Positions 12,697 to 31,128 of a DNA stretch of 64,000 bases are shown piece after piece. The DNA is from Sulfurifustis sp. GTDB taxonomy: Bacteria; Pseudomonadota; Gammaproteobacteria; Acidiferrobacterales; Sulfurifustaceae. A model generated the notes under the pieces. The model did no database searches. It was not told the DNA's origin and was given only the letters and a program-made list of their open reading frames with translations. The number at the start of each line of letters is the position of its first letter. Within the stretch, counting starts at the first letter, position 1. Position numbers and translations under genes: made by a program. Where the stretch lies: NCBI GenBank assembly GCA_045810625.1, contig JBJMVQ010000040.1:51904-115903 (forward strand). The letters run 5' to 3'.

Positions 12697-12766
12697 GAGC
12701 CTGTCGAAGGGAGCCTGTCGAAGGGAGCCTGTCGAAGGGAGCCTGTCGAAGGGAGCCTGTCGAAGG
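12697..12766. repeat. Perfect tandem repeat, 5 copies of the 14-bp unit gagcctgtcgaagg
   Basis: Read directly from the sequence: (gagcctgtcgaagg)x5 at 12697-12766. It is flanked by ttcgtcc/ggacgaa inverted repeats. A 9-bp-stem hairpin (ccgttcgtg...cacgaacgg) follows at 12798-12830. The shadow ORFs 12484..12843 and 12594..12824 span it and are not believed. Confidence 0.9.
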
Positions 12767-12854
12767 ACGAATAGTACGAGGCGTTGATGACAGTGGCCCG
12801 TTCGTGGTTCGACAAGCTCATCACGAACGGTGGAACGAATCATTCAGACCTTCC

Positions 12855-13169
12855 TTAGCCGTGCCGCGCCGAGCGGCCGTGATCCGGGCGCTCGGGCGGT
12901 TCCTGTGTGCCGGCGCCCGCGCGCGCCGCGGTGGCCGCGGCGATGAACACCGCGATGCGCGCGATCGAGCGGAAATTGTCGAGCTCGAGATCCGCGAGCG
13001 ATACCTTCACGCCGAATTCGTTCTCGAGCTGGACCAGCAGCTCGACGAACGACAGCGAATCGAGCGCCGCGCTGTCGAACAGGTCGGTGTCGCGCGTCGG
13101 CACCGCGACATGGAGGTGGTCGCGAAATATTTCGCTTAGCCGCTGTTCGAATCGGGCTGCATCACCCAT
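12855..13169 (-). CDS. Acyl carrier protein (phosphopantetheine attachment site DSL)
   Basis: 104 aa. ...LFDSAALDSLSFVELLVQLENEFGV... is the canonical ACP Ser motif. Confidence 0.75.
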   Translation of the reverse strand: MGDAARFEQRLSEIFRDHLHVAVPTRDTDLFDSAALDSLSFVELLVQLENEFGVKVSLADLELDNFRSIARIAVFIAAATAARAGAGTQEPPERPDHGRSARHG

Positions 13170-13713
13170 GGCCGATCTCCCGGTGCTCCGCTGTGTGTTC
13201 GCCGACGTCCGCGAGCTCGTCGGGCAACATATCGAACAGCAGCCGGTCGTAAACGCGCCCGTCGATCACGTGGCAGCGGCGCAGTCTGCCGACCGGCCGG
13301 AATCCCAGGCGGTGGATGATGCGCTGCGACGCTTCGTTGCACTCGACCGCCCAGGCGCTGATCATCTGCAGGCCCAGCTCGTGGAAGCCGTATGCGAGAA
13401 TTTGCCAGGCGGCGCGCAGCGCGTAGCCTTTCAGGTTGTAGCGCTTGTCGCCGAGCGCGATCCAGATGGTCGCGGTCTTGAAGTTGCGATCGATATTACT
13501 CAGGCCGACCACGCCGATCGGCGTGCCGTCTTCCGCGGTGAACGCACGCAGCGCGTGCAGGTCCTTCTGCGCCATGATCTTCACCGCCACCGCGCTCAAT
13601 TGCTGCACGCCGTTGCCGAAGTCGAGCCACTGGTAATTGCGCTTGTCCGCGAGCCAACCGGCGACGGTGTCGATCAGCTCAGGCGTGTTGAGGAGCTTTA
13701 GCTGTGTGTTCAC
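13162..13713 (-). CDS. GNAT-family N-acetyltransferase (RimJ/RimL-like)
   Basis: 183 aa. Typical GNAT core (VGLSNIDRNFKTATIWIALGDKRYNLKGYALRAAWQILAYGFHELGLQMISAWAVECNEASQRIIHRLGF). Confidence 0.8.
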   Translation of the reverse strand: MNTQLKLLNTPELIDTVAGWLADKRNYQWLDFGNGVQQLSAVAVKIMAQKDLHALRAFTAEDGTPIGVVGLSNIDRNFKTATIWIALGDKRYNLKGYALRAAWQILAYGFHELGLQMISAWAVECNEASQRIIHRLGFRPVGRLRRCHVIDGRVYDRLLFDMLPDELADVGEHTAEHREIGHG

Positions 13714-15298: not shown

Positions 15299-16302
15299 TC
15301 AGCGACCTCGCGCGCGCGTGCGAACGCCATGCGGATATGCATCAGCTCCTCCGCGCTCGGCGGTACATCGATGATGAACGTGCGATAGCCGAGCGCGATG
15401 TACCCGGCCAATTCCTGTCCGACGCGGTCGTAACTGCCGACCAGATACGGACACATGGTCTTGTAGTTCTCGAACGGCACGGTCCAATACGGGCTCGGTT
15501 CGGTGCGCTCGCCCAGTTCCGCCAATTGCTTGTGCCACACCGAGTCGGAAACCTTGTTCGCGAGCTGACGCGTCAGCTGGCCTTTGCGGTCCTCGGGAAA
15601 ACGCGCGCGCGCCACCTGCCACGCCTCGTCTTCGTGCTCGCGGCTGACGATGCCGACGCGCACGCCGGCTTCGACGCCGTCCGCCGGACTCTCGTTGCGA
15701 CTGTCGGCCAGCGGTTTGGGGTATTTGATCGCGGTCGCCTTCATCGTGCGCGCCGCCGCGAGCCCCGCGTCCGACGAACCGGAAACGAAGATCCCCGGAA
15801 ACAACTCCGCCGGCAACGGCGGCGCCAGCTTCAATTTGTCGACTTTGTAAAACTTACCTTCGTAGCTCACCGGCCCGCCCGCAGCCAACTGCTGGATGAT
15901 CGCGGTGTACTCCGCCAGGCGCTCGTAGCGGCTGTCGTGCGGCGTCGTGTCGTTCAGCGCGATCAAATCGTTCTTGAATCCGCCGGCGACCATGTTGAGG
16001 TAAAGGCGGCGCCCGTACAGGTAAGCGATCGACGTCAGATTTTTCGCCACCGTGTAGGGGTGCATGTAGATCGGCTGCACCGCGACCAACGGGCAAAGCG
16101 CGCGCGTCTCCTGGACGATGAGGTGCGCCAGCAGCCACGGATCGAGCAGCGAATTATCGGCATAGACGAGAATTCCGGTGCATCCCGCCTCCTCGCTCCA
16201 GCGCGCGACGTCGGCGACTTGCCGGCGGTAGGCGTGCTGGTCGGTGCCGCTCGACGGCGGACAAGTGGAGAACAGCTCGATATCTTTGTCGGTTGGTTTC
16301 AT
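15271..16302 (-). CDS. LLM-class (luciferase-like) flavin-dependent oxidoreductase
   Basis: ORF 15271..16482 trimmed to ATG 16302 (MKPTDKDIELFSTCPP...). TIM-barrel LLM family features. Confidence 0.75.
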   Translation of the reverse strand: MKPTDKDIELFSTCPPSSGTDQHAYRRQVADVARWSEEAGCTGILVYADNSLLDPWLLAHLIVQETRALCPLVAVQPIYMHPYTVAKNLTSIAYLYGRRLYLNMVAGGFKNDLIALNDTTPHDSRYERLAEYTAIIQQLAAGGPVSYEGKFYKVDKLKLAPPLPAELFPGIFVSGSSDAGLAAARTMKATAIKYPKPLADSRNESPADGVEAGVRVGIVSREHEDEAWQVARARFPEDRKGQLTRQLANKVSDSVWHKQLAELGERTEPSPYWTVPFENYKTMCPYLVGSYDRVGQELAGYIALGYRTFIIDVPPSAEELMHIRMAFARAREVAECPSYSKTG

Positions 16303-16313
16303 TGCCGTACCCC

Positions 16314-17588
16314 TCAGTGTGGTGGGATTGGCGACGACCGCGGCCGTCGGCGCGCCGTCTTCTCGCGAAGCAATGTCGCATACAGCTCCTCGGTTTCGCG
16401 CACCATGCGCTCGAGCGAGAAGCATTCGGTGACGCGCCGCTTTGCTTCCCGTCCAAGCGTGCGCGCGCGCTCCGGCTCGCACAAAATCGCGCTGATCGCC
16501 TGCGCCAGCGCGCGAGGATCGCGCGGCGGGACGAGCAGCCCGTCGATGCCGTCGCGGATCAGCTCGGGATTGCCGCCGACGCGCGTCGCCACGACCGGCA
16601 CACCGGCCGCCATCGATTCGAGCACGGTGTTGGACAGACCTTCGCTGAGCGACGGCAGCACGGAGACGGCGGATTCGGAAAGCAGCGCCGGCACGTCCGG
16701 CCGAAAGCCGGTGAACACGACGTGATCGCCGATACCCAGGCGCGCGGCCTGGCGCGCCAACGCATCGCGGTAGGTGGCGTCGCGCTCGATGGCGCCGTCG
16801 CGCCGCACGAACGTTTCACCGACAATGAGGAAGCGCGCCTGCGGACAGTCGCGGACGACGGCCGCCGCCGCGTCGAGGAAGTCCTCGAACCCCTTGAGCG
16901 GGCTCAGCCGCGCGAGCATGACGACGAGACGCGCGTCCGCCGGCAGTCCGAGCTCCCGGCGCAGTCCCGGGGCGCTCGGTGCCGACGGGAATCTTTTCAG
17001 ATCGATGCCGTTGCGGATGACCGCTATGCGCTCCGGTGGGTAATGCTCCTCGATGAGCCATTGGCGGATCGATTCGGCGTTCACCAGCACGCAGTCGGCG
17101 AAGCGGCAGGCGAGCCGCTGCACCCGCTTTTTCGCGGGCGTGAGGTAGACCCCGGCATCGCGGATCGACGCGATGACGACGGGCACGCCGGCCAACCGCG
17201 CGGCGGGAACGGCGAAGACGTTCGCATAAAAATTGTAGCTGTGGACGATCTCGATCCGCTCCCGGCGCATGTCGCGGGCGAGGCGCCATTGCTGGCGCAA
17301 CGTGCGCGGCTTGTAGAGGCTGTCGATGCGGTACTCGGAAACGGGTATCCCTTGCTGTTCCAACTCGTCGAGAAAATGTCCCCAACGCTTCAAGCACGCA
17401 AAACGCGGCTCGAAGCGCACCCGATCGAGTCCGTGCGTGAGGTTCATCACCTGTCGCTCGGTGCCGCCGAAACCGAAGACCACGACGAACTTCAGCAGCT
17501 TGATGCGTGCCGCCCGCGCGACCGCGTCGGTGGCGGTAAGCGCCGCTTCGACCGGCGGGACAACCGGGCGGGTTTCGACAATGCTCAT
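16314..17588 (-). CDS. GT4-family glycosyltransferase
   Basis: ORF trimmed to ATG 17588 (MSIVETRPV...). ATGA start/stop overlap with the upstream gene. GT4 motifs (ESMAAGVPVVATRVGGNPELI). Confidence 0.85.
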   Translation of the reverse strand: MSIVETRPVVPPVEAALTATDAVARAARIKLLKFVVVFGFGGTERQVMNLTHGLDRVRFEPRFACLKRWGHFLDELEQQGIPVSEYRIDSLYKPRTLRQQWRLARDMRRERIEIVHSYNFYANVFAVPAARLAGVPVVIASIRDAGVYLTPAKKRVQRLACRFADCVLVNAESIRQWLIEEHYPPERIAVIRNGIDLKRFPSAPSAPGLRRELGLPADARLVVMLARLSPLKGFEDFLDAAAAVVRDCPQARFLIVGETFVRRDGAIERDATYRDALARQAARLGIGDHVVFTGFRPDVPALLSESAVSVLPSLSEGLSNTVLESMAAGVPVVATRVGGNPELIRDGIDGLLVPPRDPRALAQAISAILCEPERARTLGREAKRRVTECFSLERMVRETEELYATLLREKTARRRPRSSPIPPH

Positions 17589-18961
17589 GCAGCCCTCCAT
17601 GACCGCACCGCTGTTGCCGGCGTCGGCGTCGCGTCCGCGCGCTCGCGCGCGCCGCGATCGGCAATCGCGCCTGCGGCGACCGCCAGGCCGGCGATGTAGT
17701 AGAAGTAGAAGTGGTAGCCCGCCGGGTGAAACGGCGCGGCAACGGCGAACGCGATGAGGCTCACGCGGATACCGCCGGCGAGCCAGTACAGATCTGCCGC
17801 CGCGGATGCCTGCGCCATTCGTTGCACCCGCCCGACGCTCTTCAAGCACGCGCGCAGCAGCAGGAGAAATAGAATCAGTCCCGGAATCCCGAGATCGACG
17901 GCGTACTGCAAATAGGCGTTGTGGACTTCGGTCCAGCGCGCGCCGCGCACTTCGTTCAGCGCCAGCACGTCCATTCCGACGCCGGCGCCGATGAGCGGAT
18001 GCTGCGCGACGTATCCCGCCGCCGCCACGGTGTCGCTCCAGCGCGCCTGCGACGAGCCGGTGGGATCGGAATCGACGTCGGTGATGGTGCTCAGCCGGTC
18101 GAGGTAGCTCGACGGCAGGAACGGCGCGGCCGCGAGCGCGAGCACGATCACCAGGTATCCCCAGCGGCGCTCCGGGCGCTTGCGCAACACCCACAGGTAA
18201 GTGGCGAAGGTCACCGCCAGCGTCACGAAGCCGGCGCGGGAAAACGTGATGACGATGCCGATCACGTCGAGACCGATGATGCCGAGCGCCGCGGCGCGCA
18301 CGAGCGGGTTGCGGTTCGCCAGCAGCAGCGCGATGGTCAACGGCAGGATCAGATTGAGCATCAGCGCCAGGTCATTCGGATTTGCCGTCAGCGCCGCCTG
18401 GTAGCCGACGATGCGCGCCTGATCGGGCGGCAGCCCTTCGTGCAAAAAGTTTCCCGAGAGAAAATTCTCCACGCCGCCGAGCGCGAGCGGAACCGCCATC
18501 AGGCTCAACGCCCAGGCGATCGTGCGCAGCCGCGCTACGGTGGTGACGACGTGCCCGAGCAGCCAAAACACGATCAGCGTCTTCAGATAGACGTCGGCGA
18601 GAAACGAAACGCTGCCGCCGACCCAATAGGAAAACGGCAGCGTCACGACGGCCCAACCGAGGAGGCAGGCGGCGATGCGCATTTCCGGCGTGAAGCGCAC
18701 CAGCGGCCGGCGCCGGATGAAGCAATCGACGACATACGTCGCCACGCCAAGCACGGCGGCGATGAGCGCGATGCGCAGCGGCGCGAGCGCCGGGAAGATC
18801 GACTGCGGCGCGATCAACAAAATGAACGTAAACACGAGCAGCGCGCGAAACGGCATTGCGCTCGGCGGCGGCGCGGTGGCGAGCGGCGGTTGCGCCCAGC
18901 CGCCGGCGCCGTCGCTCGCTACCGCCGGTCGCCACCAGGGCGCGCGCGATTGCGGATTCAC
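17585..18961 (-). CDS. O-antigen ligase / Wzy-like polysaccharide polymerase family membrane protein
   Basis: 458 aa, multi-TM. O-antigen-ligase-family loop region (TFSRAGFVTLAV...). Confidence 0.75.
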   Translation of the reverse strand: MNPQSRAPWWRPAVASDGAGGWAQPPLATAPPPSAMPFRALLVFTFILLIAPQSIFPALAPLRIALIAAVLGVATYVVDCFIRRRPLVRFTPEMRIAACLLGWAVVTLPFSYWVGGSVSFLADVYLKTLIVFWLLGHVVTTVARLRTIAWALSLMAVPLALGGVENFLSGNFLHEGLPPDQARIVGYQAALTANPNDLALMLNLILPLTIALLLANRNPLVRAAALGIIGLDVIGIVITFSRAGFVTLAVTFATYLWVLRKRPERRWGYLVIVLALAAAPFLPSSYLDRLSTITDVDSDPTGSSQARWSDTVAAAGYVAQHPLIGAGVGMDVLALNEVRGARWTEVHNAYLQYAVDLGIPGLILFLLLLRACLKSVGRVQRMAQASAAADLYWLAGGIRVSLIAFAVAAPFHPAGYHFYFYYIAGLAVAAGAIADRGARERADATPTPATAVRSWRAA

Positions 18962-20007
18962 GCCTCGCGCTCGTGCAGCGCGGCGGCAATGCGGTGCGAT
19001 GCCGCCGCCGCAGGCGCTGCCACACGCCCGGCCGGCAGCGGCCGGCGGACCGGTAGATCACCCGCGCTCGACGTCTTGCCCGCGCCGCGCATGCGAATCG
19101 GGTCGTCGTACACTTCCACGTCGGCGAAGCCGTTGGCGCGAAACCAGCGGAAGATTTCGGGATAGAAGAATTTGAACTGGTACTTCGGCGTATACCAGTC
19201 GAACGTATCGAGCCAGCGCCAGCGCCAGTTCGCGTGCAACGAGATGGGACAGAGCACGCGCAGCACGTTGCCGAGAACCGGCACTTGGTACAGATAGTAG
19301 AGCGGTATGGCGAGCGTGCTCAGCGCGAACATCAGTCGCAGCGGTAAACGCGTGGTCAGGCGGCGGATCACGTCCGCGCAGCGATTGCCGGGACCGTAGC
19401 CGTGGTACAGGTAAACGGCGAGGCCGCCGCCCGGCTTCACCGTGGCGGCCACGTGATCGAAGGCGGCGCGGGGTTCGGGCGTGTGATGCAGCACGCCGAT
19501 CGAGTAGACCAGATCGAATGTCTCCGCGCGAAACGGCATGGCGAAGATGTCCGCCTGGATCAAGTGTACGTTCTCGCGCCGCCCGATGTTCGCGTACGCC
19601 GCGTCGACGGCGTCCGTCAGGTCGATGCCGACGACTTCGCCGCCGTATTGCGCCACGATTTCCGCGAACCGGCCGCAACCGACACCGGCATCGAGCACCA
19701 GGCGGCCGCGATAATCTTCGCGCGTCCAGCCGGTGGTCGCGTGCAGGGTACGTTCCGACTCTCCGCTGCCGCTGTGCGAGTCGAGCTGTACCCGGCGAAA
19801 CCAGTTCCATTGGCGGCCGAAGCTCGACGCGTACGTCATCGCGCGCACGAACCGCGGCACGCCGCGCGTGATGGGGTACTCGGCGCGACAGCCGCGGCAC
19901 GACAACGCGCCTTCCATGATTTCCGATCCCGGCTCGGGCGGCGCGTGCAGGTCGAGACTCTGCCGGCATTGCGGACAGACGAGGAATCTGAGAGCGCTGG
20001 TTTTCAC
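18958..20007 (-). CDS. Class I SAM-dependent methyltransferase with N-terminal Trm112-like zinc ribbon
   Basis: 349 aa. CPQC...CRGC Zn-ribbon, then SAM motif I LVLDAGVGCGRFA. Confidence 0.8.
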   Translation of the reverse strand: MKTSALRFLVCPQCRQSLDLHAPPEPGSEIMEGALSCRGCRAEYPITRGVPRFVRAMTYASSFGRQWNWFRRVQLDSHSGSGESERTLHATTGWTREDYRGRLVLDAGVGCGRFAEIVAQYGGEVVGIDLTDAVDAAYANIGRRENVHLIQADIFAMPFRAETFDLVYSIGVLHHTPEPRAAFDHVAATVKPGGGLAVYLYHGYGPGNRCADVIRRLTTRLPLRLMFALSTLAIPLYYLYQVPVLGNVLRVLCPISLHANWRWRWLDTFDWYTPKYQFKFFYPEIFRWFRANGFADVEVYDDPIRMRGAGKTSSAGDLPVRRPLPAGRVAAPAAAASHRIAAALHEREA

Positions 20008-20022
20008 TGGTTTAGCTCCGTC

Positions 20023-21204
20023 CTAAATTCGGCCCGCCGCATCGGCGATCCACTCGCCCTGCGCCGCGACTTCCGGCTCGGGCGCGAGATCGCCGGCGGA
20101 CACCGCCCGCGCGGCGCCGGCCGCAGCCGGTATCGCTTCCCGCAGCGGCGCCGACTCCACCGTCCGCGCCGGCGGCGTGGACCCGGCGTCCCGATGGCGG
20201 CGCAACCACGTGGCCCTGAGGGTCGCGAGCAGGATGCGCAGATCGAGCCCGATCGAAAGGTGCTTGATGTAGTACAGGTCGTAGCGCAGCTTTTCCATTT
20301 CTTCGTCGAGATCGTTGGCGTAGCGGTAGCGGACCTGGGCCCAACCGGTGATGCCCGGCCGCACCAGCGTGCGCAGCGAGTAGTACGGAATCTTTTTGCC
20401 GCACTGCGGTATGTTGCGCGACACCAGCGCGAACAGCTCGAAGTTCGACGCCGGGTGCGGCCGCGGGCCGACCAGGTTCATATCGCCGCGCAGGACGTTG
20501 ATGAATTGCGGCAGCTCATCGAGCCGGAGCTTGCGCAGCCAGCGTCCGACGCGAGTGATGCGGTCGCCGTTGTCGCGCTCCCATTCGGTACGCTGCTCGG
20601 CCGCCGGATGCATGCTGCGGAACTTCAGCAGCGGAAAGATCCGTCCATCCCTGCCGACCCGATGCTGGACGAAGAGCACCGGACCGCGCGAGTCGAGCTT
20701 GATCGCGAGTGCAATCAGCGCCAGCAGCGGAGCGAAACCGACCAGCCCCACAACCGCCGCGAGCACGCTTATCGCGCGCCCCACGATGAGCGCGGGACCG
20801 GACGGCCGAAAGCCGGTCGAGAAAATCACGTCGCTCGGCGCGAGCGAGTCGATCGCGAGTTTTCCGGTGAGGCGTTCGTAAAGCTCCTCGCCGTCCTCGA
20901 TCACCGCGCCGCGGCAGATGCGCGCCTGCAACAACGGATCCCACGGCAAATCGGCACGCCGCTCCGTCAGCGCCACGACGATTTGTTCCGGCTGAAACTC
21001 ATCGATGATGCGCGGCAGGTCCGCCAGCGCTCCGAGCAGCGGCCAGGATCCGGCGGCGCTGCCGTCGGTGCGCTGTTCGCTGACGACGCCGACAACGGGG
21101 CGGCCGCGACGCGCGCGCGTGCCGATCAACTCGACCAGCGCTTGCGCCAACGGCGTCGTGCCGAGAATCAATATGCGCTTATGCAGGCGCGGGCGGAGGA
21201 ACAC
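20023..21204 (-). CDS. Polyprenyl-phosphate sugar phosphotransferase (bacterial sugar transferase, EPS priming enzyme)
   Basis: 393 aa. Conserved C-terminal catalytic domain (PLLKFRSM...DELPQFINVLRGDMNLVGPRP). Short N-terminus, like PEP-CTERM-locus EpsB-type enzymes. Confidence 0.85.
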   Translation of the reverse strand: MFLRPRLHKRILILGTTPLAQALVELIGTRARRGRPVVGVVSEQRTDGSAAGSWPLLGALADLPRIIDEFQPEQIVVALTERRADLPWDPLLQARICRGAVIEDGEELYERLTGKLAIDSLAPSDVIFSTGFRPSGPALIVGRAISVLAAVVGLVGFAPLLALIALAIKLDSRGPVLFVQHRVGRDGRIFPLLKFRSMHPAAEQRTEWERDNGDRITRVGRWLRKLRLDELPQFINVLRGDMNLVGPRPHPASNFELFALVSRNIPQCGKKIPYYSLRTLVRPGITGWAQVRYRYANDLDEEMEKLRYDLYYIKHLSIGLDLRILLATLRATWLRRHRDAGSTPPARTVESAPLREAIPAAAGAARAVSAGDLAPEPEVAAQGEWIADAAGRI

Positions 21205-21226
21205 GGCGAAGACGGCGCGGCGACGA

Positions 21227-22081
21227 CTACTTCCGCAGGAGCGAAGTCCACCAGCTGCGGCGCTTGCGGTTCGTCGCCGGCGTATAGCCGTAGCTGCGGT
21301 AACCGTACTGTCTGGCCAGCGAGCGGTCGTAGCGGTTGAAAACCAGGCCGAGGACGGATTCGGGGCTGAGCAAATTCAACGCTTCGGCGAGCGCCGCGCG
21401 CGGCGTGCGGTCGGCGGCGACGACCATGAAGAAACCGTCCACCCATTTGCTGATGAGCCGGCAATCCGGCACCGGCACCACCGGCGGCGCATCGAGGATC
21501 ACGTAGTCGTAGCGCTGCCGCGCCTGCGCGAGCAATTCGCCGAGACGGGGCGAGCGCAGCAGCTCATACGGCGCCGCCGGACATGCGCCCGCCGGCAGCA
21601 CGGCGAAGTTGAACGTCGGGACCGGCTGAATGACTTTTTCGAGCGGCAGGCCGGTATCGCGCACGGCATCGGCCAAACCCCGATGGTCGCGGTAGCGCAG
21701 GGTGAGGTGCTCGCCCGACGTGACCGAGGACCGGCGCAAATCGACTTCCACCAGCAGGACGCGCGCCTTGGGATCGCGCGCCAGCGCGCCGACGAGATTG
21801 ATCGCCGTCACCGACTTGCCGTCGCCCGGCGTCGGGCTGCATATGCCGACGATCACGCCGCCGCCCGGTTTGCGCATCTGCTCGACGATATAGCGCAGGC
21901 CGAGGTACTGCTCGGCTTCGAGCGAGTCCGGCGCGGTCAGGCTCACCAGGCGCGGATCGACGCGGACGACACAGTCTTCCATCGGCGCCGCCGGCGCCGC
22001 GCGCTGTCGTTGCACGGCGCCGAGGACGACCGCGCCGTCGTCGGTCCCGTCGAGCTTCACTTCCGACATCGAATGTTCCAT
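21227..22081 (-). CDS. Bacterial tyrosine (BY) kinase, cytoplasmic ATPase domain protein
   Basis: ORF 21227..22177 trimmed to ATG 22081 (MEHSMSEVKL). Walker A GICSPTPGDGKS, Walker B VILDAPP. C-terminal Tyr-rich tail (YGYRSYGYTP). Confidence 0.85.
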   Translation of the reverse strand: MEHSMSEVKLDGTDDGAVVLGAVQRQRAAPAAPMEDCVVRVDPRLVSLTAPDSLEAEQYLGLRYIVEQMRKPGGGVIVGICSPTPGDGKSVTAINLVGALARDPKARVLLVEVDLRRSSVTSGEHLTLRYRDHRGLADAVRDTGLPLEKVIQPVPTFNFAVLPAGACPAAPYELLRSPRLGELLAQARQRYDYVILDAPPVVPVPDCRLISKWVDGFFMVVAADRTPRAALAEALNLLSPESVLGLVFNRYDRSLARQYGYRSYGYTPATNRKRRSWWTSLLRK

Positions 22082-22133
22082 ACCGCCGTTTCCTGATTCA
22101 ACGCAAGCACAGCCGGAGCATTGCGCGCACCGA

Positions 22134-23561
22134 TCACGTTCCGCGCTGCGCCAGCACCCACACGAGTTGCTCCGCACGATGGGCGACGTGATAGCAGCCC
22201 TGCGCGATCAGCACGAGCGCGATGCCCGACAAAACCGTGGTCGCACCGAAACCGAGCCAGCGGCGCCACGCGTCGGCGCGGCTGGCGATTTGCGGAATGC
22301 CGGCGAGGATCGGCAGATGCGCGAACGCGTGCAGCTCCGCCATGCTGTGGAAAGACGTGTCGAGCCGTTCGGCGAGGAGCATCGCCGCGGCGGCGAGCAT
22401 GAGCGCAACGATCAGACCGAACAGCAGGAGCCGCACTCGCGGCGGCGCCGCCGGCGCCGCCGGCGCGATCGCCGGATCGACGATGCGGAACTGATTTTGC
22501 TTCTGGCGCTCCACCGTTTCGGCGAGCCGCGCTTCCTCGTAGCGCTTGAGCAGCGAGGCGTAGAGCTCCAGCACGGCGATGTGATCGCGCCCCGCCGACG
22601 GCTCGCTCTGGTCGTCGGCCGGCGCCTCCGCGGCGGCCGGCAACGGCGCGCGCGCGCGTCGCTCCGCGCCCGCGACCGGTCTGGCCAGACCGGCGCGATC
22701 CGCCGGGCGCGCACTCGGCGCGCCCGCACCGGCATCGGCGGTTTCCAGTTGCTGCTCCAGCGCCGCGATTTCGCGCTCGAGCTGAACCACATCGGGATGC
22801 TTGTCGCTCAGTCGCGTGCGCATCTCCGCCAGTTCCCGTTTCGACCGCTCGAGCCGATCGACGAGGGTATCGCCGGTGCTGCCAGCGGCGCGGGAGCGCT
22901 GTTGGCGCGCGCGCCGTTGCTCCGCGCGCTGCCGGTCCGCCCGCTGCTGCTCCGCGCGCAACTGCTGTTGGATATCATCGAGCTGCTGCTTGAGGAGCGC
23001 CGTGGTACCGACCGCCTGGCGCTCGCGAATCTTCTCGTTTTCCTGCACGTAAAACGAGGCGAGCGTGTTCGTCACTTCCGCCACGGTCTGCGGATCCCAG
23101 CCTTGATAGCTCAGGGTGAAAGCAACGGTGAGCCCGCGCCCCCATTGCTGGTTGACTTCCTTGCGCACCAACTGGATGTCGCGGCGCATCCGCTCGATCA
23201 CCGCCTCGGGCGGCGCTTGCTGGCGCAGGCGCGGGTACAAATCGAAACGGTCGATCAGCTCCTGTAAGCGCGCGCGGCTCAGGATTTCCTGCGTGACGGC
23301 TTGCAGCCGCGGCTCGATCTCGCTGCTCACGGACGATTTGGCGAAGCTCTCCGATATCTGGGCCTGCTCCACCAGGACCAACGCGGTCGCCCGATAAAGA
23401 TCCGGCAGGCCCGCCACCAGACCGGCCGCGGCGCTAAACACGGCGGCGAACACGAGGATGCCGAGCCACTTGCGCCGGTGCCACAACACCGACGCGTACG
23501 CGACGGCCGATCCATGGCCGATCGGCGCATTCACTTCCAGCGCCTGCATACGCATCTCCAA
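22134..23561 (-). CDS. Polysaccharide chain-length determinant (Wzz/PCP family) protein
   Basis: 475 aa. N-terminal TM helix, long coiled-coil periplasmic region (QQQLRAEQQRADRQRAEQRRARQQ), C-terminal TM helix. TTG start. Confidence 0.8.
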   Translation of the reverse strand: MEMRMQALEVNAPIGHGSAVAYASVLWHRRKWLGILVFAAVFSAAAGLVAGLPDLYRATALVLVEQAQISESFAKSSVSSEIEPRLQAVTQEILSRARLQELIDRFDLYPRLRQQAPPEAVIERMRRDIQLVRKEVNQQWGRGLTVAFTLSYQGWDPQTVAEVTNTLASFYVQENEKIRERQAVGTTALLKQQLDDIQQQLRAEQQRADRQRAEQRRARQQRSRAAGSTGDTLVDRLERSKRELAEMRTRLSDKHPDVVQLEREIAALEQQLETADAGAGAPSARPADRAGLARPVAGAERRARAPLPAAAEAPADDQSEPSAGRDHIAVLELYASLLKRYEEARLAETVERQKQNQFRIVDPAIAPAAPAAPPRVRLLLFGLIVALMLAAAAMLLAERLDTSFHSMAELHAFAHLPILAGIPQIASRADAWRRWLGFGATTVLSGIALVLIAQGCYHVAHRAEQLVWVLAQRGT

Positions 23562-23570
23562 TTAGGGCAG

Positions 23571-24173
23571 CTATGGAACGACAATGATGTCTCCCGGCTG
23601 CACCTGCACGTTTTCGCTCTCGCCGCCGGGTGCGATCGCCCGGTCGTAGTCGAACGGTATCCGCTTCACGGAGTTTCCGTTGGCACGCAGCAGCACGATG
23701 CGCTTGCGTCCGGCGAATTCGGTAATACCGCCGGCGCTTGCCAGCAGGTCGAGCACGGTCGCGCCGTTTTTGAACTCGTACCGGCCGGCCTTCCTGACCT
23801 CTCCCAAAACCGACGCGGTCAGATTGCGCACCTGCTGCACCACGACGGAAACTTCGGGGTTGACCACGTATCCCGTGAGCTTCTCGGCCAGCACACCGCG
23901 CAGCTGCATGGCGGTCAGGCCGGCGGCGCGCACGTCGTTCACGAGCGGCAGCGAGATCATGCCGTCCGGCCGCACCGGCACGGTTCGCGCCAGCGCCTCC
24001 TGCTTCCACACGGAAATTTGCAGCACGTCGCCCGGGCCGATCCGATATTCTTCGACCGACGCCGTATCGACGGCCGCGGCCGGCGGCCGCGGGTCCGGTG
24101 CGCTGGCGCAGCTCGCGGCCGCGCCGACGCAGATCGCGGCGAGAAGCACGCGACCGGCACGTCGCGCCGCCAT
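23571..24173 (-). CDS. Short Wza-like polysaccharide export outer-membrane lipoprotein (EpsE-like)
   Basis: ORF trimmed to ATG 24173 (MAARRAGRVLLAAICVGAAASCAS, lipobox AASC). Conserved IGPGDVLQISVW and PVRPDGMISLP (Poly_export/SLBB). Confidence 0.8.
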   Translation of the reverse strand: MAARRAGRVLLAAICVGAAASCASAPDPRPPAAAVDTASVEEYRIGPGDVLQISVWKQEALARTVPVRPDGMISLPLVNDVRAAGLTAMQLRGVLAEKLTGYVVNPEVSVVVQQVRNLTASVLGEVRKAGRYEFKNGATVLDLLASAGGITEFAGRKRIVLLRANGNSVKRIPFDYDRAIAPGGESENVQVQPGDIIVVP

Positions 24174-24210
24174 CGACGACTGTTTCCCATCGTTTCCCGG
24201 AATGCACATG

Positions 24211-25404
24211 TCAGGGTAGCTCGTCCTCGCCCGGTGCTTCCGTCGTGCGCCAGCGCGCACGACCGGGCGACAACTCGGCACGCGCCGGGGCGCCGACGAC
24301 GACGCCGAATGCGAGCACGTGGTGAACGATTTGCGTATCGCTCGGGACATCGAGCGTTCCGCGTTGCCTAACGGCGTCATAAGAACCGGTCAGCGCCAGT
24401 AGCGAGCTGATTCGGTAACTGGCCGCGACGCGGTAGCTGTAGGCATCGACCTCACCGTCGCCGCGCGCGCTTCTGGCAGCTCGCGCGCCCGCGCGGATTT
24501 CGAGCGCAGTTCCAAACGCGCGGACGGCGCTGGCCCCGATCGCGTCGGTGCTGACGACGCCGGCTTGGCCGATCACGGTCGACTGGCTGCGGCCGTATTC
24601 GAGCGCCAGCGTCCCGCGCTCGATCGTCTGCTGCAGCGACGCGGACGCCTCGACATCGTTCGACGCCTGCGACCAGCGCGGACCGGCGAGGAGCGCGACG
24701 CGGGTGCGCGACGTGAACGCATGGGTTCCACCGAAGAGCAATACGTGTGCGCTCGTGATGTCGCCGCCATCGAAATCGAAGCGGCGATAGAGATAGTCCA
24801 CGGTTGCGCTGTCGCGCCGGGTGATGGCGCGATCGACGCGCAGCTCCACCGTACGCGTGTCGCCCGCGACACCTCCCGCGAGCCGGTCGCCGATGAAGGT
24901 GTACGAGGCGGTTGCGACGCTGACCGGATCAAACCGGTACTCCACGGCGGGACCAACCGAGAGGCGCTCGGCGGGCGCCCGGCCCAAATTGAGGCCCGTC
25001 ACCGGGTTCAGCTCGCTCGGCGTCTGCGTCGCCGCGTAGTCGGCGCCGGCCGAGACGGTCAGCACCCGCGTCGGCCGGTAACGCCAATCGAGCGCGGCAT
25101 GCTGGCGTGCGCGGTTGGTGTCGAGATCCGGATGCTCGGCATAAGTTTCCGCGTCCTGGCTGTAGCGCCCCGCCAGCGTCCACGGCGCCGAGTCGTAACC
25201 CATTTCGATCGCGGGGCTCAGCCGCCCGATGCGATCCGGCTGCGGGCGCGACGGCGATGCGAAAATATTGTCGTCGTAGACTTCCGCCGCCGAAACCGAA
25301 GGCGTCATGGAGAACCCGGATTGCGCCGCCGCGCCGCCCGGCACGCCGCCGCCGAGCGCGATCAACAGCGCAACGATCCGGCATGCTCTTTCCCGGGCAT
25401 CCAT
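24211..25404 (-). CDS. Predicted outer-membrane beta-barrel protein of the EPS locus
   Basis: ORF trimmed to ATG 25404 (MDARERACRIVALLIALGGG...). Signal peptide. Alternating beta-strand pattern rich in Y/R/S/T/G. Confidence 0.5.
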   Translation of the reverse strand: MDARERACRIVALLIALGGGVPGGAAAQSGFSMTPSVSAAEVYDDNIFASPSRPQPDRIGRLSPAIEMGYDSAPWTLAGRYSQDAETYAEHPDLDTNRARQHAALDWRYRPTRVLTVSAGADYAATQTPSELNPVTGLNLGRAPAERLSVGPAVEYRFDPVSVATASYTFIGDRLAGGVAGDTRTVELRVDRAITRRDSATVDYLYRRFDFDGGDITSAHVLLFGGTHAFTSRTRVALLAGPRWSQASNDVEASASLQQTIERGTLALEYGRSQSTVIGQAGVVSTDAIGASAVRAFGTALEIRAGARAARSARGDGEVDAYSYRVAASYRISSLLALTGSYDAVRQRGTLDVPSDTQIVHHVLAFGVVVGAPARAELSPGRARWRTTEAPGEDELP

Positions 25405-25492
25405 CGCTGCGCCAATTCCGGCGCGCGCAACCCCGTCGGCAGGAGGCAATCGATCTTGCCCCGCGAAACGGTACCGCCACCCGTGCCGCCGC

Positions 25493-26104
25493 TTACGCGA
25501 GCGCGACCGCGGTGCAATCGATCTGTACGGCGATGCTCTGCCGCAGCAGCTCGACGGAAAGAACCAGGAGGCCTTTCTTGGGATCGGTCTTCACCAGGAT
25601 GCCTTCCGCGCTCGCGAGCGGCCCGTGGGTGATGCGCACGCGCTCGCCCTGGCGCAGGTAAGGATACGGAATCGTCGGAACGTCGGCAGCGAGAATGCGC
25701 TCGATCGCTTCGATCTCGCCGCCCGAAACCACCCCGAGCCGATCCCAGCGTTCGCCGAGCATGCGCACGACACCGCGGGTCTTGCACACCTCGATGTAGC
25801 TGTATTTGTCGATCGCGTGATGCAGAAACAGATAGCCGGGAAACATCGGGACACGGCCGAGGTAGCGCAGCCGCGCGCGCCGCGACCAACGGCCGACCTG
25901 CGGCAGCAACGTCTTGAATCCCTTCGCCGTCAGCTCGCCGTGCACCACGTGCTCGCAATTGCTGCGCGTCCATACCACGTGCCATTGCGGCTGAGGTTTC
26001 GCGGCCGCATGCGGGCCGACGGCCGCGACGAGCGCTGCGGTCTGGGCATCGATATTTTTTGGCAAAGCTTCGCCCCTTCGCGCCCCTTGCCTTCGCAGGG
26101 GCAA
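25493..26104 (-). CDS. NusG-family paralog (NGN + KOW), operon-specific transcription antiterminator-like protein
   Basis: 203 aa. NGN region WHVVWTRSNCEHVVHGELTAKGFKTLLPQV...MFPGYLFL and KOW GERVRITHGPLASAEGILV. Annotated start is TTG, and the true start may be internal. Confidence 0.75.
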   Translation of the reverse strand: MPLRRQGARRGEALPKNIDAQTAALVAAVGPHAAAKPQPQWHVVWTRSNCEHVVHGELTAKGFKTLLPQVGRWSRRARLRYLGRVPMFPGYLFLHHAIDKYSYIEVCKTRGVVRMLGERWDRLGVVSGGEIEAIERILAADVPTIPYPYLRQGERVRITHGPLASAEGILVKTDPKKGLLVLSVELLRQSIAVQIDCTAVALA

Positions 26105-26449
26105 TCGCTTTTACAGATTGTGCTGAATGGCGATCCGCTCCCCGTCGGCTACGCCCAAGAAGTGTCGCCGGCGGAACGCGCATCGCTACGCTTGTTCCGC
26201 CGTCAGACGCTCGTTGCGTCTCGTATTAACCGTACTCGGACAGGAACGCGGGGCGCAGAGTGCCCGCCACCGGACAATTCAACAATCGAGTAAATGCCCA
26301 AGTCGGGAGGAGACAGATCCCTTAGAAGCGCCTATCGATGCCACTTAATCGGCGGGAGAAATTTACGCAGCAAATCGGCACCCGTGCGCGCAGGCGGCCG
26401 AACGCGTGCGCGCCGGCGGCTCGGGCCGAAACCGGCGGTGCAGGTTGGA

Positions 26450-27091
26450 TCAGGTATGGACCAGTCCGCGGCGAATCGCGTAACGCACGAGTCCCGCGAC
26501 ATCGTGGATGTCGAGCTTTTTCATGGCGCGATTGCGATGCGCTTCGGCGGTTTTGAAGCTGACGTTGAGCACCCGCGCAATCTCTTTCGTGGTATTGCCC
26601 TCCGCCACCAATTGCAATATCTGCCGCTCGCGCGGCGTCAGCGGATCCTCGTCGTCGCCGGCGTTCTTGGTCAAGGCCAGGTAGGCGTCGACCACCGAGG
26701 CGGAAACCCCGGGGCTCAGGTAAATCTCGCCGTTGCGCACCTCGTGGATGGCACGGATCAGGTCGTCCGCCGCTTGGGTCTTCAGCAGATAACCGCGGGC
26801 GCCCATGCGCAGCGCCTGCAGCACATAGCTCTTTTCGGTGTACATCGTCAGCAGGATCGTCTTGATCTCGGGCGCGGTGCGGCGAAGCTCGTCGGCCGCG
26901 TCCAACCCGTTCAGCACCGGCATGGATAGATCGAGCACGGCGACGTCGGGACGCAGCGTGTGCGCGAGCGCGGCCGCTTCGCGTCCGTCCGAGGCTTCGC
27001 CGACGACTTCGTGGCCGGCTTTCTCCAGCAGCCCGCGCAATCCCTGGCGCAGGATCAAGTGGTCGTCCGCGAGCAGTATGCGGCTATGCAT
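26450..27091 (-). CDS. NarL/FixJ-family response regulator (REC + LuxR HTH)
   Basis: 213 aa. DDH...D phospho-acceptor region. C-terminal LTPRERQILQLVAEGNTTKEIARVLNVSFKTAEAHRNRAMKKL. Confidence 0.9.
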   Translation of the reverse strand: MHSRILLADDHLILRQGLRGLLEKAGHEVVGEASDGREAAALAHTLRPDVAVLDLSMPVLNGLDAADELRRTAPEIKTILLTMYTEKSYVLQALRMGARGYLLKTQAADDLIRAIHEVRNGEIYLSPGVSASVVDAYLALTKNAGDDEDPLTPRERQILQLVAEGNTTKEIARVLNVSFKTAEAHRNRAMKKLDIHDVAGLVRYAIRRGLVHT

Positions 27092-28010
27092 GCGTGCCTC
27101 CGAGCGGGATGTCGGCGATGAGCGTCGTGCCGCGCCGAGGCTCGGCGCGAATCTGCAGCGAGCCGCCGAGGGCGTTCAGCCGCTCGCGGATGCCGAGCAG
27201 CCCGAGACCCTGCGCCGCCGGCGCGCCCTGCGCGTCGAAGCCGCGGCCGTCATCGCTGACATGACAGGTAACGTGCGCCGGCAGGCGCCGCAGCTCGATA
27301 CGCACCGCGCGGGCGTGCGCATGCTTCACGGTATTGTTGAGCGCTTCCTGAACGATCCGGTACAGCGCGATCTCGACCGCCGCCGGCAGGCGCTCGCCGA
27401 CCGCCGCGTCCACCGTGACCACGAGCCCGGTGCGTTTGGCGACGCGCTCCGCCAGAAACTCGAGCGCCGCCGCGAGCCCGAGGTCATCGAGCACCGTCGG
27501 GCGCAACTCATGCGAGAGATTGCGCAAGTCGTCCTCGATCTGTTTGAGCAGGCGGCCGATCTCGCTGAAGCGCGCGCGCGCCGCCGCCGGCACGCCGGCG
27601 GCGACGATGTCGGCCAGCACGATATGCACCGACGCGAGCATTTGCCCGGCCTCGTCGTGCAGCGCGTGCGCGATCCGCTTCGATTCGGCCTCGAGCGCTT
27701 CGTTCAGGCCGCGCAGCGCGCGCATGCCTTCGCGTGCGCCGCGATGACTCATCTCGAACGCCGACAGGCATTCGGCGAAGAACTCCCCCGCCGCGCGCAG
27801 CGTTCGATCCAGCTCGCACTGCTCCGCCGCCAGGCGCCGCAACGCGAGATGATGGATCGCGGCCATTTCGAGCACGCCGCGGCCGTCCATCAGCGCGCGC
27901 CGACCGAGCTCGTAGCCGCGATTGAGCAGGGTTTCGCCGTCATGCTCGAGATACTCCCGCAGGATCTGCCAATACTGCTCGGTCAGCGGCGCTACCTCCA
28001 CCGTCGTCAT
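27084..28010 (-). CDS. Sensor histidine kinase (HisKA_3 + HATPase_c) with an about 110-aa N-terminal soluble domain, possibly RsbU-N-like (RsbT-receiving)
   Basis: ORF trimmed to ATG 28010 (MTTVEVAPLTEQYWQ...). H-box RIAHALHDEAGQML, N-box EALNNTVKHAHA, DDGRGFD, GLGLLGIRERL. No TM segments. ATGA overlap with the upstream phosphatase gene. Confidence 0.8.
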   Translation of the reverse strand: MTTVEVAPLTEQYWQILREYLEHDGETLLNRGYELGRRALMDGRGVLEMAAIHHLALRRLAAEQCELDRTLRAAGEFFAECLSAFEMSHRGAREGMRALRGLNEALEAESKRIAHALHDEAGQMLASVHIVLADIVAAGVPAAARARFSEIGRLLKQIEDDLRNLSHELRPTVLDDLGLAAALEFLAERVAKRTGLVVTVDAAVGERLPAAVEIALYRIVQEALNNTVKHAHARAVRIELRRLPAHVTCHVSDDGRGFDAQGAPAAQGLGLLGIRERLNALGGSLQIRAEPRRGTTLIADIPLGGTHA

Positions 28011-28612
28011 TTGCCACCGTTGTAGCGGAATATCACCACGGTCGCGTCGTCGCTGCCCTTGGCGTAGCCGTCGATTATCCGGTCCGCGAGGCGCTGCGGC
28101 TCGATCGCCGCCGGCAACATCTCGGCGAACTCGGTGCGCACGCCGTCGCTCGCGAGGATCAGCATGTCGCCCGCGGCCACCGGTTCGACCGACGGCCGCA
28201 GCGCCGGCAGCCGGTCGCCCACCGTGCCGGCGCGCACCAGCAGCGCGCGCACGCGCGGATGCGCGTCGGGATCGGCGTACACCAGCAGTCCGGTCACGTT
28301 GCCGATGCCGAGCCATTGTATGGTGTGCTGGCCGCAATCGAACGACGCGATGCTGATGGCGGCGCCGCGCAACCCGCGCATGTTCAGATGACAGCGCTCG
28401 ATGAGCGCCGCCGGTGCATCGCCCGCATGCTGCTCCAGCGTCCGCGCTGCGACGCCGGCGGCCTCGGCCGCGTAGTGCCCGTGACCAAGCGCATCGATCA
28501 CCGCGACCAGCGCGCCGTCGTCGAACGTTTGCACGACCGACCGATCGCCGCATTCGGTCTCGCCCGCGTGCACTAGCGACGCCGCGCCCCAGTCGAAACA
28601 CGGCGCGTTCAT
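28007..28612 (-). CDS. PP2C-type (SpoIIE/RsbX-like) serine phosphatase
   Basis: ORF trimmed to ATG 28612 (MNAPCFDWGAASLVHAGETECGDRSVV...). GD..VVA..DGLGHG and ASDGV motifs of RsbX/RsbU phosphatase domains. Confidence 0.75.
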   Translation of the reverse strand: MNAPCFDWGAASLVHAGETECGDRSVVQTFDDGALVAVIDALGHGHYAAEAAGVAARTLEQHAGDAPAALIERCHLNMRGLRGAAISIASFDCGQHTIQWLGIGNVTGLLVYADPDAHPRVRALLVRAGTVGDRLPALRPSVEPVAAGDMLILASDGVRTEFAEMLPAAIEPQRLADRIIDGYAKGSDDATVVIFRYNGGK

Positions 28613-29049
28613 CACCGCAACCACTTGGTCACCGTGACGGTGGTGCCGCACCCGACCTTGGAGACGATGTCGAACTCGTCCATGATGCGCCGCACGCCGG
28701 GAAGTCCGAGCCCGAGACTCGCCGACGTGGAATAACCCTCGCGCACCGCGAGCTTCGTATCCGCGATCCCGGGACCGCGGTCGCGCGCGACGATGGTAAT
28801 GCCGCAGCGGCCGGCACCGTCCACCGGGCGCACCAGGATCTCGCCGGTCTTGGCATAGTGAACGATGTTGCGCGCGAGCTCCGAGATCGCCGTCGCGACG
28901 AGCGTCGCCTCGCTTGCCGAGAAACCGATCTGCTCCGCCAGCGCCCGCCCCTGGCGCCGCGCCTGCACGATGTCGATATCCGACGCGACGGTTACGTACA
29001 CGCCGGAGTTTGCCTCAGCCTCGACCTTGCCCATGAACCGTTTTTCCAT
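28612..29049 (-). CDS. RsbT-like GHKL serine kinase (stressosome kinase / anti-sigma-type kinase)
   Basis: ORF trimmed to ATG 29049 (MEKRFMGKVE...). N-box ELARNIVHYA, G-boxes DRGPGI and GLGLPGV. Confidence 0.75.
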   Translation of the reverse strand: MEKRFMGKVEAEANSGVYVTVASDIDIVQARRQGRALAEQIGFSASEATLVATAISELARNIVHYAKTGEILVRPVDGAGRCGITIVARDRGPGIADTKLAVREGYSTSASLGLGLPGVRRIMDEFDIVSKVGCGTTVTVTKWLR

Positions 29050-29386
29050 CCAGGTATTTGATGCCTTCCTCGAGATCGAGCGCCGTCGTGACTCGCTCCA
29101 ACGTGATGCCGAGCTGCACCATCGCAAACGCGACTTCCGGTTGAATCCCGACGATCACCGTTTCGGCGCCGCGCAGCCGGATCATGTGGGCCAAATCGCG
29201 CACGGTCCGCGACGCGAACGAATCGAGCACATCGAGCGCGGTCACGTCGACGATTACGCCGCGCGAACGGAATTTCCCCACCTGCTGGACCAGCGCGTCG
29301 CGCAGCTGCACCAGGTCCGCATCCGTCAGCGCCGACTGGATGGTCGCTATCAGGTAGTCCTGCTGCTTGAGAATAGGAACCGCCAT
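29015..29386 (-). CDS. RsbS-like single-domain STAS protein (stressosome scaffold/antagonist)
   Basis: 123 aa STAS domain with conserved phosphorylatable Ser in VLDSFASR. Confidence 0.8.
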   Translation of the reverse strand: MAVPILKQQDYLIATIQSALTDADLVQLRDALVQQVGKFRSRGVIVDVTALDVLDSFASRTVRDLAHMIRLRGAETVIVGIQPEVAFAMVQLGITLERVTTALDLEEGIKYLDGKTVHGQGRG

Positions 29387-29396
29387 CGATTAAGCC

Positions 29397-30317
29397 TCAT
29401 TGCGCGCGAATCGCGCTCACCGGCTTCGGCGGCGTGTTTTCGCCCATCGGCATCACTTTGTATCCGAGCAGCCGCTCCGCCTCTTCGATGCCCCCCTGCA
29501 GATCGCCGACCGTGTTCATCTTGCCGAGGTCGACGCCGATATTGACCAGCGTTTGCGCGATCTCGGGCGACAGCCCGGTGACGATCACGGTGGCGCCGAG
29601 CAGCCGCGACGCCTCGACCGTCTGCACCAAGTGGTTGGCGACGTTCGAGTCGAGCGCGGCGACGCCGGTGATGTCGATCACGACCACACGCGCGCGGTTC
29701 GCGCGTATGCCGCGCAGCAATTGCTCGGTGAGCTGGCGCGCGCGCTGCGGATCCATCACGCCGATGATCGGCAGAATCAGCAGGCGCTCGCGCACTTGCA
29801 GGACCGGCGTCGACAATTCGCGGATCGCCTCCTGCTGCTCGCGGATGATGCGCTCGCGCTCCTGCACGAAACCGACCGCGACGGTGTTGGCGATGCGGTT
29901 GGCCGCCGGCTCGTAGGCGTCGAGGATGCGGTTCAGCAGCTGGAAGTCGGCCTGATATTTTGCGAACAGCGAGCGCGCGAGCACGTCGCGCAGCAGCAGC
30001 ACGATGCCGACGACCTCGTCCGTTTGCACGCCGCGCGGGATGATGCGTTCGGACAGGTTACGCGCATACGCCTGCAGCGCTTCGAACGTACCGGTCTCGA
30101 GCGCTTCGACGTAGTTGTCGTACACCGATGTCGCTTCCGCGAAAATTTCCTCCTTGCTCATCGCCGTCAGTAACTTCGCTTCGGTGATGCGGCGCGCCCA
30201 CTCTTCGCGCAGCTCGGTGCGGTGTTGGCGCAGATGCGCGACGAGCTCGCGCAGCAACGCGGCGGTCGAACCGGTTGCCGCTTCGGGCGCGCGAGATTTC
30301 TCTGTAGCCATCTTCAT
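29397..30317 (-). CDS. RsbR-like stressosome sensor (N-terminal sensor domain + C-terminal STAS)
   Basis: 306 aa. C-terminal STAS with conserved Thr region (VVVIDITGVAALDSNVANHL). N-terminal about 150-aa helical sensor domain. Confidence 0.75.
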   Translation of the reverse strand: MKMATEKSRAPEAATGSTAALLRELVAHLRQHRTELREEWARRITEAKLLTAMSKEEIFAEATSVYDNYVEALETGTFEALQAYARNLSERIIPRGVQTDEVVGIVLLLRDVLARSLFAKYQADFQLLNRILDAYEPAANRIANTVAVGFVQERERIIREQQEAIRELSTPVLQVRERLLILPIIGVMDPQRARQLTEQLLRGIRANRARVVVIDITGVAALDSNVANHLVQTVEASRLLGATVIVTGLSPEIAQTLVNIGVDLGKMNTVGDLQGGIEEAERLLGYKVMPMGENTPPKPVSAIRAQ

Positions 30318-31128
30318 GACGGATTCCTCCTCTGTGCGGAAAACACGGACAACAAAATTCGCAGGCGACTTCGGCGAAGCGAAGCGCCCGGTCGATTCGG
30401 GAACACCAGAAATGCGCGCGGCCGTAACCTCCCAACCACCTTACGTGCCTTAGGTAGTTATTTTTATGTCATCGGTTATTTCATTTGCATTTTATGGCTT
30501 TCGCCGCGAATAACAATGAGTGAGTTATGAGTACTGAATTGGACGCGTCGTGCTTCGTTAACGAATGCGTGCGGCAAACGCGCATCGATTGCGCTTTACC
30601 ACGATGTCACCATGGAAATTGCGCTTTGCGAAAACAGCAGCAGAGAAATGTGCGCGCAATCACCGGACGCCGCGCAATCAAAACCGTTCGTCGCAGCGAG
30701 ATCAATGATCGAGTCACGCCGGTGACTCCGACTTTCGAACAGGAGCAACGGAAAGGCTGTGAGACGTCCCGCGAATTCCCACCGGAGTATCAGGGCTAAA
30801 TACCTTAGCAGGCTCCGAGCAGTACTGAGCAAGAAAATTTTTGCGGAAGCGAACATGCGCGCTTTCGGTGAAACCTTCGCGCGACCGCCTTCGATTATCT
30901 GCACTCACCGAATGGATAGGTCGAACGGATCATCTTTACTACGTTGGTTGAATGATGGTTTGATATCGCGCCGCGTTTTTGGTTGGGTAGCTCGCACAAA
31001 ACCCTCCCGATAACTTTGGACGTAATTTCCCGCGCGTCTAAATTGTGTCTATCGCTTCTGTAGAACACGGCTACTTTGTTTTTCGCCCCGCCGAAACGAG
31101 CGGTAAAGGGGAGTTTAAAGGGAGTTCA

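Follow-up and report, generated by a model that had tools for sequence, protein, structure and literature searches.

A stretch of 64,000 nucleotides (nt) from Sulfurifustis sp. (contig JBJMVQ010000040.1, positions 51,904 to 115,903; hereafter the window) carries a cassette of six genes on its minus strand, between 30317 and 26450, in the order rsbR-rsbS-rsbT-rsbX-type PP2C phosphatase-histidine kinase-NarL-type regulator. This cassette probably encodes a stressosome with a two-component system as its output, in which the signal is relayed to the kinase and on to the NarL-type regulator. The order of the genes, their domains, their catalytic and phospho-acceptor motifs and their co-conservation in relatives are observed; the central step, binding of RsbT to the N-domain and linker of the kinase, is likely in view of the domain found there.

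All junctions within the cassette overlap or nearly abut. The rsbR gene (29397..30317, 306 amino acids) is preceded by GAGGAGGA 8 nt upstream of its ATG and encodes an RsbR-type N-domain, resembling a globin without haem, followed by a linker helix and a C-terminal STAS domain. The product of rsbS (29015..29386, 123 amino acids) is a single STAS domain with a phosphorylatable Ser56; rsbT (28612..29049, alternative start at 29034), which encodes a GHKL serine kinase, overlaps the end of rsbS by 20-35 nt. The single-domain PP2C phosphatase of the RsbX type (28007..28612, 201 amino acids) shares one base of its start with the rsbT stop codon (TGATG), and an ATGA junction connects it to the gene for a soluble histidine kinase (27084..28010, 308 amino acids). 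This kinase consists of an RsbU_N domain (approximately residues 6-86), a helical linker, a HisKA_3 domain with His118 and an ATP-binding domain. Its gene overlaps by the 8 nt ATGCATAG with that of the response regulator (26450..27091, 213 amino acids), a NarL/GerE-family protein with receiver Asp54. An independent gene caller produced the same six genes on two metagenome contigs with an identical kinase, and an identical kinase protein is on record from a Sulfurifustis-like metagenome-assembled genome.

Gene calls, junctions and Pfam domains thus confirm the initial annotation of this DNA, which had named six co-directional genes with these identities without giving their strand. Its picture of an operon holds for the six cassette genes with their tight junctions; it does not hold for the polysaccharide genes further downstream, from which they are separated by ~380 nt of non-coding DNA. 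As also stated there, the module lacks the classical partners of the Bacillus pathway: rsbV, rsbW and a sigma factor gene were not found beside it in the window, and neither was any further copy of a STAS, RsbT/W-like kinase, PP2C or RsbU_N domain.

Judged by sequence, the first four genes are a stressosome-type RsbR-S-T-X set. RsbR residues 26-286, that is nearly the full length, align to residues 6-271 of Listeria RsbR1 from solved stressosomes (E 2e-33); its STAS domain scores 54.2 bits in Pfam and its RsbRD_N match, at 23.2 bits, lies slightly under the cutoff of 24.3. RsbS, a STAS protein according to Pfam, matches its Listeria and Bacillus counterparts with E 1.5e-24. Phosphorylation sites were located by means of the point variants deposited with solved Listeria and Bacillus stressosome entries: Ser56 of RsbS (within LDVLDSF) aligns with the serine that is changed to alanine in a deposited Listeria RsbS variant. 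We take it to be the phosphorylatable serine, Ser59 in Bacillus and Ser56 in Listeria. The residue is invariant in 52/52 orthologues, and phosphorylation of RsbS is therefore expected. RsbT (HATPase_c_2, 48 bits) has the ELARN, DRGPGI and GLGLPG motifs, which are kept in 59 orthologues, and the phosphatase (SpoIIE, 41.8 bits, no additional domain) has the conserved GD, D-x-x-GHG, DG and DDAT motifs that include the metal-binding aspartates. Haem binding by RsbR, as in Vibrio, was also considered: the closest structural relatives are the non-haem Listeria RsbR1 proteins, and no evidence of haem was seen, although no dedicated follow-up was made.

The kinase is the component that would connect this core to a two-component system. 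The Pfam profile search that the initial annotation had proposed as a check was run on the cassette proteins and was positive, including for RsbU_N: the kinase scores 35.1 bits for this domain (curated cutoff 25.5), 32.4 bits for HisKA_3 and 55.2 bits for HATPase_c. The suggestion that its N-domain is the candidate receiver of RsbT is therefore strengthened by a match above threshold. As an RsbU_N domain, it is expected to be a docking site for RsbT. Among solved structures, the kinase family profile finds those of the DesK type (E 1e-19), and the family profile of the N-terminal 105 residues finds the crystal structures of the RsbU N-domain, 2J70 and 1W53 (E 2.4e-4). The AlphaFold model of the full kinase (predicted local distance difference test score, pLDDT, 81) has four helices between residues 7 and 86 and then a single long helix, 89-138, that bears His118; the N-domain modelled alone (pLDDT 84) also has four helices, the last of which spans 67-104. 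The linker is the best-conserved segment of the kinase, with 0.59 identical columns compared to 0.41 in the N-domain. The His box and the ATP-binding boxes of the kinase as well as the receiver Asp and the GerE helix-turn-helix of the regulator (Response_reg 97.6 bits, GerE 65.3 bits) are all present, and the motifs are conserved.

These components could transmit a signal in the following manner: RsbR and RsbS would assemble via their STAS domains into a core that holds RsbT. When the N-domain of RsbR senses its signal, RsbT would phosphorylate Ser56 of RsbS and leave the core, which the RsbX-type phosphatase would later reset. In the soluble kinase, free RsbT may then dock on the RsbU_N dimer and on the helical linker next to it. 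Because this linker is continuous with the His118 helix, docking could shift the balance between kinase and phosphatase activity, and thus alter phosphorylation of the regulator at Asp54; we infer both the assembly of the core and the sign of this effect. The regulator would in turn change transcription, in many relatives probably from its own promoter, and here possibly also that of the adjacent polysaccharide cluster, which is led by a NusG paralog.

Several observations weigh against this relay. Of the residues of RsbU that are published as contacts to RsbT (Glu24, Tyr28, Ile74 and Ile78), three differ in the kinase (Tyr28 is replaced by Asn30, Ile74 by Ala79 and Ile78 by Ser83). In a Foldseek search of the PDB with the model of the N-domain, RsbU N-domains come third, fifth and sixth, with non-significant E values of 0.7-1.1, and the KaiA C-domain is also retrieved, equally without significance, while the full kinase model finds DesK/CpxA-type kinases only; the fold prediction for RsbU_N is supportive, not independent. 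In Vibrio, an interaction of RsbT with the downstream kinase, which lacks RsbU_N, was not detected (PMC9237108). Finally, RsbR has Pro190 at the position of Thr171 in Bacillus (Thr175 in Listeria), where the family has Pro in 37, Ser in 6 and Ala in 3 of 46 sequences, and Ser224 at the position of Bacillus Thr205 (Listeria Thr209), where Ala (19), Ser (14), Val (7) and Leu (6) occur. The phosphorylation-dependent regulation of RsbR thus differs from the Bacillus model.

The divergent contact residues fit a different role of the kinase N-domain, namely that of a dimerisation module only; the signal of RsbT would then be passed on by phosphorylation, be it of the kinase or of some other protein, or via an unlinked phosphatase of the RsbU type. 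RsbT-dependent phosphorylation has indeed been proposed for downstream kinases without RsbU_N (PMC9237108), and a view of 64 kb of the genome leaves room for an unlinked partner. We nevertheless consider this improbable, since the fourth contact residue is retained (RsbU Glu24 aligns with Glu26, invariant in an alignment of 20 sequences) and the linker is conserved best of all. RsbU_N is, moreover, not only above threshold but found together with rsbT in dozens of loci (see below), and a longer variant of the kinase, into which a PAS domain is inserted, keeps it, which argues for retention toward a specific partner. The lack of an alternative RsbT partner within the window likewise counts in favour of a relay from RsbT to the kinase. 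A chance juxtaposition of a stressosome module with an unrelated two-component system is hardly conceivable: it is already contradicted by the identical gene order in dozens of loci across phyla, and the overlapping junctions and the RsbU_N domain of the kinase speak against it as well.

The distribution of the cassette is broad. One genome per species of the Genome Taxonomy Database (GTDB) was scanned for relatives, yielding more than 590 confirmed kinase relatives, of which 80 loci were kept for counts. An rsbT homologue and an RsbU_N-kinase co-occur in 59 of these 80, and the complete order from rsbR to the regulator is retained wherever the flanks suffice (about 59 loci). The hosts belong to Gamma- and Betaproteobacteria, Acidobacteriota, Nitrospirota, Rokubacteria, NC10/Methylomirabilota, Verrucomicrobiota, Udaeobacter, Dormibacterota, Eisenbacteria and others. 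The PAS-bearing variant of the kinase, with PAS between RsbU_N and HisKA_3, occurs in loci L048, L050, L052-L054, L058-L060, L063, L064, L066-L068 and L070, and a second regulator gene of the NarL type often follows immediately downstream.

Conservation is uneven within the cassette. Where the cassette is complete (29 loci), the median identities to the window proteins are 88% for RsbR, 78% for RsbS, 61% for RsbT, 42% for the RsbX-type phosphatase, 48% for the kinase and 55% for the regulator. The sensor domain of RsbR (residues 26-150) is about as conserved as its STAS domain (0.87 versus 0.91 identical columns), and a search with the RsbR protein returned at least 8000 matches, the best 120 clusters being 84-96% identical. 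Recent horizontal transfer was ruled out as the cause: where residues are identical, 34-55% of codons differ, and identity is only 42-78% for the five remaining proteins. Since the synonymous sites have diverged, the conservation reflects strong purifying selection on the whole protein. That the sensor domain hardly varies suggests a ligand or partner that is itself conserved.

A candidate operator was found in the relatives, namely the palindrome TCAGGT-N4-ACCTGA, of which the related loci (1.32 Mb in total) contain 31 copies with one mismatch or less; 29 of these lie 90-390 bp upstream of rsbR (for example L053:7587, L083:7536 and L009:7503), and the remaining two upstream of a second regulator gene. 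It is a plausible and even likely binding site of the cassette's NarL-type regulator, its position suggesting autoregulation. In the window, the palindrome was not found upstream of rsbR. The sole match, TCAGGTATGGACCAGT at 26450-26465, has two mismatches, a quality at which chance alone would give one match per window, and lies on the stop codon of the regulator gene; L050 and L058 have similarly weak sites. Scans for inverted repeats in both intergenic regions returned only short GC-rich repeats. Just upstream of rsbR, the G+C content drops from 0.67 to 0.57, and it stays at 0.55-0.60 across 30400-46000, so that the original upstream region may have been replaced. The segment 30400-46000 may be acquired DNA that took the place of this region; it encodes small proteins unmatched in Pfam, a DUF3857-transglutaminase protein, a Band 7 protein, RtcB and an HNH endonuclease. 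A candidate promoter of the sigma-70 type, TTGTTA-16-TAAAAT (30489..30516, minus strand), lies ~170 nt upstream of rsbR; it is a lone consensus match at chance level (1 found versus 0.7 expected).

Polysaccharide neighbours were counted at the 44 loci whose flank spans 5 kb or more. In 9 of them, the cassette is followed by the same polysaccharide cluster led by a NusG paralog, in the shared order regulator, sometimes a second regulator, NusG paralog, export protein, chain-length determinant, kinase-like ATPase and priming transferase. These loci come from several phyla and include both kinase variants and at least three divergent kinase subgroups; L087 repeats the layout of the window nearly gene for gene, and L014 has the arrangement on a shorter flank. 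When all loci are counted, a GGDEF protein (22 loci) and small PilZ proteins (21 loci) are the most frequent of the other neighbours, and in one relative a pilus or secretion cluster lies downstream of the cassette. Judging from this gene content, the theme of the neighbourhood is surface and biofilm behaviour, which makes the polysaccharide inference of the initial annotation a reasonable one. In the window itself, a gene 3.4 kb upstream of rsbR (33699-34721, minus strand) encodes a weak receiver match and an HD_5 (HD-GYP-like) domain, a possible phosphodiesterase for cyclic di-GMP (c-di-GMP) that echoes the GGDEF and PilZ neighbours of the relatives.

That the regulator controls the adjacent polysaccharide cluster is nonetheless a tentative proposal, which we would hold as somewhat more doubtful than its main competitor. 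According to the latter, for which the chances are close to even, the relay operates as outlined above and the regulator targets the operon it belongs to, together with unlinked or c-di-GMP genes, the polysaccharide genes being a loose neighbourhood and not under direct control. The distribution of the palindrome fits such targets, as none of the near-perfect copies in the 1.32 Mb lies upstream of a NusG-paralog gene; even at two mismatches or less it is barely enriched there (2/12 regions). So do the neighbour counts, in which GGDEF and PilZ proteins are commoner and polysaccharide genes are missing from 35/44 loci (present in only about 20%), and the fact that the polysaccharide genes are preceded by a 380-nt leader of their own, in which an element is conserved. 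Direct control draws on the recurrence of the downstream arrangement across several phyla and kinase subgroups, on the lack of a predicted minus-strand terminator in the gap between the regulator and NusG-paralog genes, and on the two-mismatch palindrome at the start of the leader, with its weak counterparts in L050 and L058. The initial annotation thus stands as far as the stressosome RsbR-S-T-X set and the RsbU_N kinase are concerned. Its proposal that environmental stress controls exopolysaccharide production gains from an arrangement that recurs in 9/44 loci; it is not established, as most cassettes lack a polysaccharide neighbour and the operator is absent upstream of rsbR. A regulator site that would support the link was not found. 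No literature linking this cassette to a polysaccharide operon was found. A still bolder scenario appears unlikely: the window would hold one copy of perhaps the most widespread stressosome of soil and sediment, whose ~88%-identical RsbR, present in at least eight phyla, would read a universal intracellular cue, and which would control matrix polysaccharide and a sessile, c-di-GMP-dependent way of life as a master switch, directly driving the NusG-paralog-led operon here. If the polysaccharide link is true, it would tie stressosome sensing to the production of biofilm matrix in abundant uncultured soil lineages.

To our knowledge, stressosomes outside Firmicutes have no established output, and that of Vibrio is the only Gram-negative system studied. 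The architecture from stressosome to kinase and its mechanism are already published as bioinformatics and as a model, and the window adds a member. Some alpha-, beta- and gamma-Proteobacteria encode, downstream of rsbX, proteins with an RsbU_N-like N-terminus (PMC9237108), and the same mechanism has been proposed for RsbU_N-kinases, one of which was modelled with AlphaFold as a dimer that has a coiled-coil linker ('NreB' of a gammaproteobacterium, Fig. 5E of PMC12143880). For RsbU_N-histidine kinases in proteobacterial stressosome operons, Pane-Farre et al. 2005 is the source cited. The remark in the initial annotation that stressosomes linked to two-component systems had been noted bioinformatically is therefore correct, and the published link is stronger than it stated (PMC9237108, PMC12143880). 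Compared to the RsbU_N-kinases of these reports, the window has the same architecture and would rely on the same action of RsbT on the RsbU_N dimer and coiled-coil linker. The reports, which are based on bioinformatics and modelling, do not include the six-gene cassette across phyla, the extreme conservation of RsbR, the palindrome or the polysaccharide neighbour. As far as literature searches show, no earlier description exists of the cassette across phyla, of its near-invariant RsbR or of the operator.

With Bacillus subtilis and Listeria monocytogenes, the cassette shares an RsbR made of a globin-like N-domain and STAS, an RsbS with the conserved Ser, RsbT and an RsbX-type phosphatase, as well as an output protein in which RsbU_N is joined via a helical linker to an effector. 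This effector is a HisKA_3 kinase with a NarL regulator here, whereas it is a PP2C phosphatase feeding a partner switch in the two Firmicutes; moreover, rsbX here directly follows rsbT, the window lacks rsbV, rsbW and a sigma gene, and RsbR has Pro at the first phospho-Thr. The arrangement in Vibrio vulnificus is similar in that RsbRSTX is followed by a two-component module (D1/D2) in a Gram-negative host without sigma B. It differs in three respects: RsbR of Vibrio is a haem globin-coupled O2 sensor, D1 has no RsbU_N and no interaction between RsbT and D1 was detected (PMC9237108), and the output is thought to be c-di-GMP turnover instead of a DNA-binding regulator. A link of the V. vulnificus stressosome to c-di-GMP and motility has been proposed (PMC10014275). 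In Moorella thermoacetica, the output is described as an RsbU_N-GAF-GGDEF protein (Quin et al. 2012, as cited in PMC12143880); as in the cassette, RsbT and RsbU_N would control an effector other than a phosphatase, with a shared theme of biofilm and second messengers. The effector there is a diguanylate cyclase, whereas here c-di-GMP genes are only neighbours, in relatives. The cassette offers a clean test system for the proposed switching of a histidine kinase by RsbT through a coiled-coil linker, because it combines a docking domain, a simple DNA-binding output and, in relatives, a recognisable candidate operator.

The large co-oriented exopolysaccharide cluster with a NusG paralog of its own, which had been described downstream of the cassette, is real and extends over ~24 kb of co-directional genes (26066-1814). 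The non-coding gap that separates it from the regulator gene occupies 26067..26449. The first gene of the cluster (25493..26066, minus strand) encodes the NusG paralog (Pfam NusG, 47.1 bits), which is UpxY/LoaP/RfaH-like: the NCBIfam scores are 68.5 bits for UpxY, 62.2 for LoaP and 60.9 for RfaH, each below the curated cutoff. At the end of the gap, a hairpin is followed by AAGGGGCGAAGC (26078-26067); this element (26061..26106, minus strand) overlaps the probable ribosome-binding site and the start of the NusG-paralog gene. In 7 related loci belonging to other phyla, the 12-mer AAGGGGCGAAGC is found again behind a hairpin, the sequence of which varies, and an Rfam search of 25300-31000 returned no family matches, including for the hairpin element. 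This element may serve ribosome binding or translation, or it may recruit the NusG paralog.

The remaining genes of the cluster (1814..25449, minus strand) encode an outer-membrane barrel, an export protein, a chain-length determinant, a tyrosine-kinase-like ATPase, a priming transferase, a polymerase/ligase-like protein, glycosyltransferases, an adenylation enzyme with a carrier protein, acetyltransferases, a deacetylase and an amidotransferase. Their best NCBIfam matches are families of the XrtA/PEP-CTERM system, mostly under the cutoffs. Within 12855-16482 (minus strand), an adenylation enzyme, a small open reading frame resembling a carrier protein, a GNAT-like protein and a luciferase-like monooxygenase suggest decoration of the polymer with acyl or aminoacyl groups. 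In the adjacent short non-coding gap inside the cluster (12571-12855), the translation repeats FDRLPSTGSLRQAPFDRL, implying a tandem DNA repeat.

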